64,000 nt of DNA from Escherichia coli (GTDB taxonomy: Bacteria > Pseudomonadota > Gammaproteobacteria > Enterobacterales > Enterobacteriaceae): NCBI RefSeq assembly GCF_030013205.1, contig NZ_CP122648.1; one strand, given 5' to 3'. Position numbers: made by a program. Within the stretch, counting starts at the first letter, position 1, and each line of letters begins with the position of its first letter. Below, piece after piece: positions 9,001 to 12,000 of the stretch.

Positions 9001-12000
9001 TTGTTAAGGCACTTAGCGGGTTTGTTGGTTTTGCGGTTGAACATCCCTGGCTTTTTGGGGCCGCAGTACTTGCTGGACCATCGAGAGTTGGTGCTGTGGC
9101 AGCCACAACGACCGGAGTTGCCGCCCGTGTTGTTGGTGGAAGTCTTCTTGGGGCTACAGCCGGAACAGTAGCTGGATTGGCTATTCCTACAAATGACACA
9201 CCTACCACCAGTGAGGAAATGAAAGGGCTGGAGGGGCGTTTCAACTTTGATTATTTTAACGAAGTGCAGGAGTGGCAAAAAAACAATCCGGGTAAGGTCT
9301 GGCCTGGAGGATTGCAGGGATTTTCAAATCAAGTAAACAGATCTGCATATTTATCCAGAGGGATCAGGAATAACAATCCCGGAAATCTTAATTTCGCAGG
9401 ACAAAAAGGGGCTACCCTGGAATCGGGGCCAAATGCCCGTTTTGCCAGCTTCCCGACGATGCTGGAAGGCATTGCCGCCTTAGATCGGCAGGTAATGCTA
9501 TACCTGAAACGCGGCAAAAATACGATTGATCAGATTATTGATATTTATGCCCCTTCATCTGATGGAAATAACACATCGTCCTATAAAAGCTATCTCTCTC
9601 AGTACACCGGATTAGGTGTTAAGGAGAAAATCGATGGTTCTAATTTTGAGGTCATGAAAAAGCTAATTCAGGGCATTATTAACCATGAAAATGGTGCTGC
9701 CGCTAAAGCTGTAAGTGTTGAAGATGTGATCCGGGCGCTGGCTATGAATCGTGGGATTGTCCCTGCAGCAGGAAACAATGATCAGAACGTTAAGTTGGAA
9801 ATTGTTCGGAACGCTGGTGCCGATTACTTCGCGCAACTAATTGGTGCTCAACGGTTCCTGGGATGATTTAAATACACGCGCTTTCCGGCGCATTAATACA
9901 GTCTGAGGGGAAGTGTCATGTTTATGAGCAAGGCAGAATATGCCAAACACAAAGGCGTAAGCCGCCAGACAGTTTACGACTGGATCGAGAAAGGCGAAGT
10001 GATCATGTCTGGCAAAAAAATTGATGTGGAAGCGACAGAGCAGCGGAACAGCCCACCAGCACAGGGAAAAGATACCGTTTCTGAAATGTGGCCAGAGAGA
10101 ACGCTGGAAATGACGTGGGGCGAGTTCTGGAAAGCAGTTAAGGCCAGAGACGGTAAAATCCCTGCACCAGTAACGGACAATGACATACAGCAGCGTGTAC
10201 AGGATGCAGCCGGGGAACTATGCTGTGAAGTGCAATTTCTTGATGATGGTGCTATCTGCCTTGAGGATTATGCTGGGCAATATTACTTTGAGCAGTATGA
10301 TTTTCGGGAAAATGCCAGGCTGGCAATTCGTATGCTGCGTTGTGAGCTCTGCTATGTTGCAGGTGATTGTCCCGATGAGCTGGATAACTGGAGTGAAGCC
10401 GGACTAAACGCCCTGGCTGAGTGGGAAAAATCAGGCCATCAATGACCTCAAAAAGTGTCAAGTTGAGCAGCTTGCCAGGTTGACACTTTACACTCTGAAC
10501 GCGAAAAAGTGTCAACCTCGCTGTAAGCCCCGCCATTACTGGCCTTTCGCCAGATTTACCACGTCAAAAAGCCGAAAAAATCGCGAAAAGTGTCAAGTTG
10601 CCATGCTTAGAAATGCTAAGGTTTGATAAGGTTTTTCGCGAAAAAGTGTCAAGTGTGTCAACCTGCGATGTTAAGATTTGTTAAGGTCTTAAGCCGGAAA
10701 GTGTCAACCAGCCCCCTAAGATTTCCTAAGGTGTAAACCATGACCATCACCGAAGCCGATTTGCTGGAGATGATCCGCAGCATTGCCGGAATCAAACAAC
10801 CAGCAAGCAAAATTAACAGGTGTTCAGCGCCTGTTTCCGTTGTGCTGCAGCAGGAACGCCACCAGCATGATGATGTGAGGCCGTATCAGTGGCGGAAACC
10901 GGACAGGCCGCGACGGTGAGCGGAACGTTCGGTAAGGCTACAGCCAAGCCAAACATTAAGCCTACGGGTAACCCTTCGAAGGGGCTTTAAAGGGGAGATG
11001 ATTATCCTTACCAGTTGATAAACAAGCAAACCTCAAATTTGAGGTTTGTATCTGCCTGACTTATTTTTGTGCTAAGTTGTTGATATATCCGACGACACAA
11101 ATTTGCGTTCTGTGGCTGGTGGTGGCGAGTTACGACCGATCATTTCCTTCCTGGCAGGTTACATCCTGCTGCTCAACTACTACGGTAGCCACTACGATTA
11201 ACTACGCGATGCCGATATGGGGATTCCCATATCGGTTTATCCGTGATCATCCACCAGCTTGATCACGGTTAACAGGGGATGTGTAATCCCCAAGCGAGTG
11301 ATAAATGTGTATAGAAATGTGTATAGAATTTATTTTAGAACTCGCGAATGCGCCTTTATTACTGGCCTTGTGGCTTGTTGTATTGTTCCCTTCGCCCGCT
11401 CCAGAATCTCCCCAGGTGGAGAAGACTAAAAAAGTCTTCTCTGTCAGCAACTTAAACAGTTACCTATTTAATTTGCTTAGGAGTTCTACCATTGTGATCC
11501 GCCCTTAGTAACTGTCACGTTAAGTTACTCGGTGAGATGACAGTATAACCTAACGTTGGCGGCAGTTGCACCTCTCACACCGCGATAGCACAACGTGAAG
11601 ATAAAGCCCATCCTGGCATTGTAATGTCATCGACAGACTGAACACACGCATTTAAGCCCGATGTGCGGCCTTGTGGCTGCGTAAACAGGTTTATGGTGAT
11701 ATTGGTCCTTGCAAACCATATGCAAGCTCTATCAGCGTTTCAGCCACGCTCCCAACGGGTACACGGTTATCCTGATAAGGTGTGATCTTTCTGACAATCT
11801 GATGAAGTCGCTACGCTCCCGCTTGTTGCTGTATCACCAACGGGGCTTTATGGTTTCTATTGTCTATAATAATCTCACAATTCCCCTGCATGAGGTTGAT
11901 ATGACTGTTAGCTACAAGATTACTTATGAGCATAGAGACGGTGATCAAATTAGAATGGAAGAGGTTTTATTCCATTCAGAGCATGAACCAACAAAAGATG

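Follow-up and report, generated by a model that had tools for sequence, protein, structure and literature searches.

A terminase-like DNA-binding protein and its GTGTCAA box array as a possible packaging-specificity module of a PICI-type satellite in Escherichia coli

Satellites of the phage-inducible chromosomal island (PICI) type move virulence, resistance and defence genes. To our knowledge, the route by which such elements are packaged is known for only a few of them, namely those that use the small terminase subunit (TerS) of the Staphylococcus aureus pathogenicity islands (SaPI TerS), those that combine an Rpp protein with a lambda-type cohesive-end (cos) site, and the capsid-forming PICIs (cf-PICIs) with their own terminase. 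Here, we describe a gene for a 175-aa protein and an array of short GTGTCAA boxes behind it, located in a 14.2 kb PICI-type satellite island of E. coli ETEC4079, a porcine isolate whose chromosome (NZ_CP122643.1) matches the window with 100% identity. The window, that is, the whole stretch of contig NZ_CP122648.1 that we analysed, is 64,000 nt long. Judging from the sequences, we would give an even chance to the explanation that protein and array form a packaging-specificity module, Rpp- or TerS-like, of this island.

The closest described proteins are the redirecting phage packaging (Rpp) proteins of E. coli cos-type PICIs, for example RppA/c1503 of the island EcCICFT073 (Fillol-Salom et al. 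2019, PMC6739421; Murialdo & Feiss 2022, PMC9026076). The rppA gene of EcCICFT073 (c1503) encodes 144 aa (PMC6739421). The concept as such is known: Rpp and SaPI TerS are both cases in which a satellite pairs a TerS-like DNA-binding protein with a packaging-recognition site of its own. New with respect to the literature that we searched are the protein family, its C-terminal domain, the site composed of many boxes and the state without a cosN; none of the papers that we found describes the motif or the protein family.

The 175-aa protein and its box array

The module consists of the following parts (window positions):

9918-10445, + strand: gene of the two-domain 175-aa protein, with ATG start, annotated as hypothetical protein (WP_103743298.1)
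9918-10049, + strand: N-terminal winged helix-turn-helix, residues 1-44, of Nu1/TerS type, with recognition helix VSRQTVYDW
10089-10430, + strand: C-terminal α/β domain, about residues 58-171, unrelated to the oligomerisation or TerL-binding regions of TerS
10452-10516, no strand: left box cluster with AAAGTGTCAAG (+, 10452-10462), GGTTGACACTTT (-, 10478-10489) and AAAGTGTCAAC (+, 10506-10516)
10517-10586, no strand: central box-free segment, CTCGCTGTAAGCCCCGCCATTACTGG..., with moderate conservation, among close relatives only and below that of the boxes
10587-10737, + strand: right box cluster with boxes at 10587, 10643, 10653 (GTGTGTCAAC) and 10698, and a degenerate GTGTAAA at 10731

In the window we count 7 copies of the exact 9-mer AAGTGTCAA, compared to 0.73 expected from dinucleotide-preserving shuffles (n = 100). 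The shuffle maximum was 3, and 0/100 shuffles reached 7. Six of the seven copies, one of them inverted, fall within the 255 bp from 10453 to 10707. The GTGTCAA core is found at 10455, 10480 (inverted), 10509, 10590, 10646, 10655 and 10701, and degenerate GTGTAAA cores at 10487 (-) and 10731 (+). The "at least seven" repeats of the initial annotation are thus correct for the core, of which there are seven; the full form AAAGTGTCAA(C/G) is present in the array in six copies. In the left cluster, GGTTGACACTTT overlaps a degenerate TTTACAC at 10487-10493.

In the right cluster, a TAAGRTNT doublet comes after each main box (10617-10634, 10672-10689, 10717-10734), and these units repeat every ~55 bp. 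Within each of the three doublets the spacing is 10 bp (10617/10627, 10672/10682, 10717/10727), and the composite "GTGTCAAG..ATGCTAAGAAATGCTAAGGTTTT" is found again in Serratia, Enterobacter and metagenomic relatives. The array had been described initially as interleaved with TAAG(A/G)TTT; the TAAGRTNT doublets are confined to its right half. Across the 64 kb, TAAGRTNT shows no enrichment (28 occurrences, 21.8 expected), so only its local clustering is notable; the doublets are probably sites for a second factor. A scan of the array for promoters and terminators gave nothing above the shuffle expectation.

The homologs used for comparison were collected from Pantoea, Serratia, Rouxiella and Enterobacter genomes and from IMG/VR. 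Below, L-numbers denote the homologous loci or contigs compared, and a window position equals the L001 position minus 6201. The extended box consensus is rAAAGTGT(C/A)AA(C/G)(C/T). In an alignment of 13 related arrays the boxes are invariant while the spacers drift. For example, the spacer between box 1 and box 2 (aligned to window positions 10463-10477) contains 1-4 extra copies of the 8-bp unit CAGCTTGC in L017 and L019.

A 175-aa reading frame directly before the array, beginning with a Nu1/TerS-like winged helix-turn-helix (wHTH), had been reported in the initial annotation, and our results agree with both points. The start codon is right, since the homologs begin with MLMSK. The family is conserved across Enterobacterales (E. 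coli, Pantoea, Serratia, Enterobacter, Rouxiella, Klebsiella and others) in 53 clusters, several of them with hundreds of member sequences, and is annotated everywhere as hypothetical; the module is present in 255 of 5,426 complete E. coli genomes (~5%). The AlphaFold2 (AF2) model (pLDDT 88.7) has a wHTH in residues 1-44, a disordered linker and an α/β domain in residues 58-170.

By sequence comparison, the first 40 residues are homologous to the wHTH of Nu1-type small terminases. The matches in PHROGs are confined to residues 1-42, the best being PHROG 57 "terminase small subunit" (E 1.3e-6), followed by the Cox-like PHROG 575 (E 5.7e-5). Furthermore, a tblastn search with the 175-aa protein against 50,697 phage records retrieved solely the N-termini of the Nu1-type TerS proteins of Serratia phage BZS1 and Citrobacter phage phiNP. 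In hhalign comparisons the probability was 96.7% for BZS1 TerS (39 columns) and 95.1% for the TerS-like protein of contig L150, which is described in the next section. Annotated matches in AFDB50 beyond the family are mostly Nu1/TerS proteins, with ~60 aligned columns. The HTH also matches RacR and YlxM weakly. Pfam gives a sub-threshold HTH_17 match only (i-E 0.0033) and no Phage_AlpA, and no NCBIfam model scores above its cut-off (TIGR01764 reaches 17.5 bits, with a cut-off of 28.8).

All matches to TerS end at about residue 42, and we were not able to find any homology to the central oligomerisation region or to the C-terminal region of TerS that binds the large terminase subunit (TerL). 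The fold of the C-terminal domain is unlike TerS, and there is no TerS structural match. The protein is thus not itself a small terminase, since nothing in its C-terminal two thirds is related to TerS. The gene lies neither beside a large-terminase gene nor beside a recognised cos/pac cleavage site, and no match resembling TerS, TerL or Rpp was seen in the annotation or among the open reading frames (ORFs) scanned, the genes upstream of the primase being outside the scan. A search with the C-terminal profile against 1.84 billion representatives found 44 clusters only, some of which are stand-alone domains without the HTH, and no annotated relative. Two repeat proteins that appeared in this search besides the family and its fragments look coincidental. 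Sequence searches in the PDB, with the single protein and with the family profile, returned noise only, including a spurious match to TMPRSS2 SRCR (E 0.003), and Foldseek against BFVD found nothing below E 0.06.

To quantify the linkage between gene and array, we counted boxes (core GTGT[CA]AA, or GTGTMAA) at 59 distinct loci and compared the 600 bp that follow the gene to the other 818 kb. The density is 7.8 boxes/kb after the gene and 0.117/kb elsewhere, a 66-fold difference, and all but two of the loci (57/59) have at least 3 boxes. L011 has its module in inverted orientation with respect to the rest of the island, and the array still lies directly downstream of the gene. A 138-aa homolog that consists of the C-terminal domain only is found at L189 2989-3405 and L190 2282-2698, after ProQ and PerC like the gene in the window; at these loci without the HTH there is no GTGTMAA box anywhere (9.4 kb). 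Since gene and array occur together and the boxes are lost along with the HTH, we suppose that the HTH binds the boxes. In keeping with the constant box, the HTH hardly varies within the family. The boxes are unchanged across islands with different primase families (D5_N/DUF5906, DUF927, Toprim fusions), and the distance between array and att site varies in relatives from ~0.6 to 4 kb, with cargo genes in between.

One of the relatives has an unusual surrounding. L030, from 11826-12383 onward, holds a relative of the island, with an HTH protein of 55% identity, that immediately precedes a truncated major-head gene; neck, sheath and tape-measure genes come next. This relative looks like one of the helper-embedded satellites that Tommasini et al. 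describe.

Boxes of the same type at a cohesive-end site and the position of rppA

Using the inverted box pair as a query, we scanned IMG/VR and found a second type of module in L092, L113, L114, L123, L143, L149 and L150. In L150, L113, L092, L123, L143 and L149 the layout is GGGTCCTT.. (cosQ-like), GCATTGCGCGCC, 8-9 GTGTMAA boxes and then a gene for a TerS-like protein of 186-209 aa; the DNA of L149 ends before the gene. The respective positions are 3113-3330 in L150, 10488-10720 in L113, 1092-1420 in L092 and 12560-12760 in L149. The 12-mer GCATTGCGCGCC is identical to the annotated cohesive end (cosL) of phage BZS1 and is also present in phiNP. The L150 protein matches PHROG 57 over its full length (residues 1-180, E 2.7e-23) and is 40.9% identical to BZS1 TerS over 97% of the length. 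Between cosN and terS, BZS1 and phiNP have GGTAACA repeats, and their helix reads VSRKTVTSW; the recognition helix of the box-associated proteins is (S/T)RQ(T/A)xYxW.

This layout identifies the GTGTMAA boxes as the predicted private cosB of elements that keep a helper-type cosN and have a private TerS. Together, the TerS-type elements and the phages look like a satellite-helper pair that is defined by a swap of cosB and TerS. The 175-aa family has the HTH and the boxes in common with the TerS-type elements, and has neither a TerS body nor a cosN.

The position of the module in the island can be compared to EcCICFT073 by means of the next gene:

10740-10919, + strand: terminal 59-aa ORF, a conserved last gene of PICI-type islands (PHROGs 1561 and 7271), probably outside the module

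In both EcCICFT073 and the cf-PICI vB_KppS-Ant, the last ORF is a homolog of this one. In EcCICFT073, rppA lies between cos1 and the inverted cos2, and the small ORF is next. Since the small ORF is homologous in both islands, the 175-aa gene is in the slot of rppA and the array in the slot of cos2.

Several other candidates for a cleavage site, a packaged DNA end or a TerS gene were rejected. A BZS1-type match at 61523 lies inside a chromosomal transporter gene and is due to chance, and a blastn-short comparison of four cos regions with the whole island gave chance words only. Many IMG/VR contigs end at the stop codon of the gene; rather than virion ends, these are most likely provirus boundaries that were placed where a gene stops. 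In L043, a terminal repeat of 77 bp, considered as a sign of a circular packaged form, contains a tRNA 3' end, hence it is probably an att repeat. The ORF downstream of the gene in L027 matches DUF5681, which has no assigned function; a link to TerS would be tentative, and we dropped this ORF as evidence. The same was done with a downstream ORF of 68 aa in Serratia, which matches a TerS PHROG at E 0.002 only.

The island and its other cis elements

The island is a PICI-type satellite at tRNA-Gly(ccc), for which int, attL and attR could be recognised. The integrase is terminal, direct att repeats mark the tRNA gene, and the size lies within 10-20 kb; an alpA-type HTH, a Bro/AntA zone, a primase followed by an iteron origin, and captured phage genes in the late zone are present as well. 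The gene order is integrase, small HTH regulator, AntA/Bro, Icd-like, DUF4222, P4-type primase, ProQ/FinO, PerC, late genes, 175-aa gene, array and 59-aa ORF, the captured late genes being DUF2213, a 205-aa ORF and a 679-aa ORF similar to lytic transglycosylase/tape-measure proteins. This order agrees with the Integration-Bro-Replication-Late layout of Gram-negative PICIs (bioRxiv 10.1101/2022.07.18.500453). Besides the array, the island has the following cis elements:

4208-4580, no strand: probable replication origin, an AT-rich intergenic stretch where GGTAGACAG iterons (at least 10) lie in both orientations, directly 3' of the P4-type primase gene (2403-4208)
11303-11326, + strand: tandem AAATGTGTATAG repeats, probably integrase arm-type sites, with a motif unlike the array
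11382-11404, + strand: attR of the island, where part of the tRNA-Gly(ccc) 3' end recurs as a direct repeat (identical core of 18 nt; L001 17583-17605)

Repeats of the TGTATAG type lie beside both att sites, at 11303-11326 near attR and at L001 3465-3495 near attL, where a similar pair GTGTATAG..GCGTATAG adjoins attL. These repeats, which are probably arm-type sites of the integrase, differ from the origin iterons and from the array. Since origin iterons and att arm repeats use other motifs, the GTGTCAA array is a third, separate cis element. The initial annotation had put it at the right end of the island, and indeed attR (~11382-11404) follows, with 640-950 bp between the array and the attR core.

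The tRNA-Gly(ccc) gene itself lies upstream of the window. Its 3' end is repeated with the 18-nt core at attR and perfectly at ~26128-26150, so that there are two elements in tandem. The second one (11404-26150) uses the same tRNA-Gly att, with the perfect 23-nt repeat at its far end. It encodes its own integrase (24822-26042, -), a major capsid protein (19408-20436), a baseplate protein and a recombinase of the resolvase type (13114-13665), and it contains an IS3 insertion but no GTGTCAA array.

We made some further observations on the island. The last small ORF before att (window 10740-10919; L187 3374-3655; LR881103.1 4598-4786) has a common C-terminal (Y/H)W(K/R)KP motif followed by an arginine-rich end; the comparison with LR881103.1 and L187 spans the island in the window, EcCICFT073 and the cf-PICI vB_KppS-Ant. 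Between the small ORF and the arm repeats, at 11212-11272, there are two short perfect or near-perfect hairpins, CCGATATGGG..CCCATATCGG and TTATCCGTGATCA..TGATCACGGTTAA, and similar hairpins are seen at the equivalent place in EcCICFT073 and in a Pantoea island. The ~785 bp from 763 to 1548, between the antA-like and the icd-like gene, have no RefSeq gene and are covered solely by an implausible 331-aa ORF; no Rfam family matches there, P4 CI/C4-type RNAs included. Generally, the Rfam search gave nothing in 9700-11600 at E <= 1 and nothing in 1-27000 at the gathering score. Finally, the adjacent ORFs 5813-6400 and 6465-7148 match a single PHROG of 545 positions (6216) in swapped order, at positions 409-544 and then 115-326. 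RefSeq labels the ORF 5813-6400 as a NUDIX hydrolase, for which the profile searches give no support.

Weighing the explanations and comparison with known systems

If the module serves packaging, a wHTH derived from a Nu1-type small terminase would bind the rAAAGTGT(C/A)AA(C/G) boxes downstream of its own gene, as co-occurrence and co-loss suggest. The nucleoprotein complex would mark the island DNA as a substrate of the helper terminase, in a role like that of cosB or pac, since the boxes of relatives lie between cosQ-cosN and the TerS gene and since the gene is in the rppA position. Because the C-terminal two thirds are not TerS-like and no cosN was found, the protein would most likely be an adaptor whose novel domain recruits or captures the TerS or TerL of the helper in the manner of Rpp. 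Cleavage could be a sequence-independent headful initiation near the array, or it could take place at an unrecognised site. Both the adaptor and the mode of cleavage are speculative.

Several observations weigh against a role in packaging. There is no lambda-, P2- or BZS1-type cosN/cosQ anywhere in the island, nor a lambda, P2 or BZS1 cosN in the central segment between the box clusters (10517-10586), and for the C-terminal domain no relation to either TerS or Rpp could be detected. In lambda-type systems cosB precedes terS/rpp, whereas here the array comes after the gene, and the first inverted pair (boxes 1 and 2) has no fixed spacing. L188, a distant homolog with the HTH, has no array within 0.8 kb, and on the L034/L088 contig the boxes are ~1.6 kb from the gene. 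As for a helper, blastn found no INPHARED phage that has the right-end DNA, and phage pPE4, the best match of the late tail genes (87.6% identity), has no boxes and a different TerS. The cos/pac-like recognition module proposed in the initial annotation is supported in part, by the homology of the HTH to TerS, by the co-occurrence and by the boxes at the cosB of relatives, while the body of the protein is not TerS and a cosN or pac site was not found.

The protein could instead be a transcriptional regulator that acts on a multi-operator region (of its own gene, of read-through into the small ORF and att, or of the late genes) and has no role in packaging. We think that this is unlikely, although the HTH is generic, with the weak matches to HTH_17, RacR and YlxM, and one UniProt member of the family is named "Repressor". 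Moreover, the reverse complement of the box contains TTGACA, the sigma-70 -35 hexamer, the 59-aa ORF has its start codon right next to the last degenerate box, and the stand-alone C-terminal domains mean that this domain has a function independent of DNA binding. On the other hand, there is no promoter-like site in the array; an operator made up of nine sites that face both ways and are spread over 290 bp behind the gene would be unusual; and the small ORF is absent or displaced in L011, L027 and L043, which keep the array. In addition, the closest homologs of the HTH are terminase subunits, and identical boxes are found at the cosB of relatives. Another explanation would be interference: the TerS head might occupy the GTGTMAA cosB of competitors, be they TerS-type satellites or a helper with these boxes, and block their packaging, with the island's array serving autoregulation or titration. 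The bacterial families concerned do harbour elements with GTGTMAA boxes at a real cos site, the protein has another domain in place of the C-terminal TerS region, and Rpp unites interference with redirection (PMC6739421). Nevertheless, we regard pure interference as quite improbable. A purely trans-acting inhibitor leaves the cis-linkage in 57/59 loci unexplained, the DNA of the island itself would be blocked too, and we were not able to find a phage with GTGTMAA boxes.

Two further explanations concern replication and recombination. The short repeats in both orientations, with their period of ~55 bp, resemble iterons of the P4 crr kind or a centromere-like site, so that the array could be a second cis site for replication or maintenance, bound by the HTH protein or by the primase; P4 requires a distant crr besides its ori. 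Yet the canonical origin with other iterons adjoins the primase gene, the boxes are invariant across primase families and do not co-vary with the initiator, the array is not AT-rich, and no ParA-type or other partition NTPase is present among the ORFs scanned or in the annotation, which makes such a site very improbable. We give the least credit of all to an excisionase or recombination directionality factor acting on att-proximal sites, an assignment to which the initial annotation had given equal rank (AlpA/excisionase type). It would draw on the Cox-like PHROG 575 (E 5.7e-5), on the 17.5 bits of TIGR01764 and on the place of the module near the right end of the island. However, TIGR01764 stays below its 28.8-bit cut-off and HTH_17 is at E 0.0033 only; 175 aa with a second domain does not fit, and a separate small HTH gene (annotated as helix-turn-helix regulator) lies beside int, at a place taken by Phage_AlpA or HTH_17 in relatives. 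Between the array and the attR core there are 640-950 bp; the array lies beyond the arm repeats and with an ORF in between (up to ~4 kb in relatives), and the arm-type repeats have a different motif. We thus do not see the two assignments of the initial annotation as equal.

Returning to the role in packaging, a further-reaching version of it appears doubtful to us, albeit worth stating. The 175-aa family may be a new class of redirection factors, composed of a terminase head and an undescribed terminase-capturing domain. With its array it would be a portable private "pac" cassette, free of cos and open to inversion or swapping, and the head may jam the GTGTMAA cosB of rivals. If our main explanation, a packaging-specificity module, is right, the module would be a third solution for Gram-negative satellites. 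It would also define a simple DNA tag, consisting of one gene and ~300 bp, with which any replicon could be made transducible.

How does the module compare to known systems? In phage SPP1, pac is composed of pacL, pacC and pacR and is bound by the TerS protein G1P. Similarly, the array has two box clusters that flank a box-free centre of ~70 bp; there is, however, no sequence relationship, and the central segment, at most a putative place of cleavage, is less conserved than the boxes.

Nu1-type TerS proteins (lambda Nu1 with its R sites, BZS1 and phiNP with GGTAACA) share with our module the homologous wHTH and a cluster of short repeats that adjoins the gene. They differ in that the 175-aa protein has no TerS core and no TerL-binding region, and in that no terL follows the gene. 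Here the sites are downstream and not beside a cosN, and both the recognition helix and the box sequence are different.

The likeness to Rpp lies in the slot before the conserved terminal small ORF and after PerC and the captured late genes, in a predicted private recognition sequence beside the gene that is unlike any phage cosB, and in the TerS-like DNA-binding wHTH. On the other hand, the homology to Rpp is confined to the HTH (hhalign, 26% over 29 columns; BLASTP, 25 aa, pairwise E 3e-4), and neither phmmer nor hmmsearch retrieved RppC from the PDB sequences. The C-terminal domain of the 175-aa protein is α/β, whereas the dimerisation helix α6 of RppC is described in its paper as a coiled coil. 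In EcCICFT073, lambda cosQ/cosN is directly upstream of rppA, with a single R3-like site proposed; here there is no cosN, and ~9 boxes lie downstream.

A further comparison is that with the satellites that have a TerS (SaPI TerS; L150, L113, L092). The elements among them that we found carry identical boxes and a related HTH, and in L092 the module also follows tape-measure-like late genes. While L150 and its kind have a full-length TerS and keep the cosQ/cosN of the helper, the protein in the window keeps only the DNA-binding head of TerS. Taken as a series, this leads from a phage TerS with GGTAACA, via a satellite TerS with the same cosN and GTGTMAA, to an HTH-only chimera with GTGTMAA and no cosN, and gives a testable picture of how packaging specificity could evolve by swapping boxes and recognition helices.

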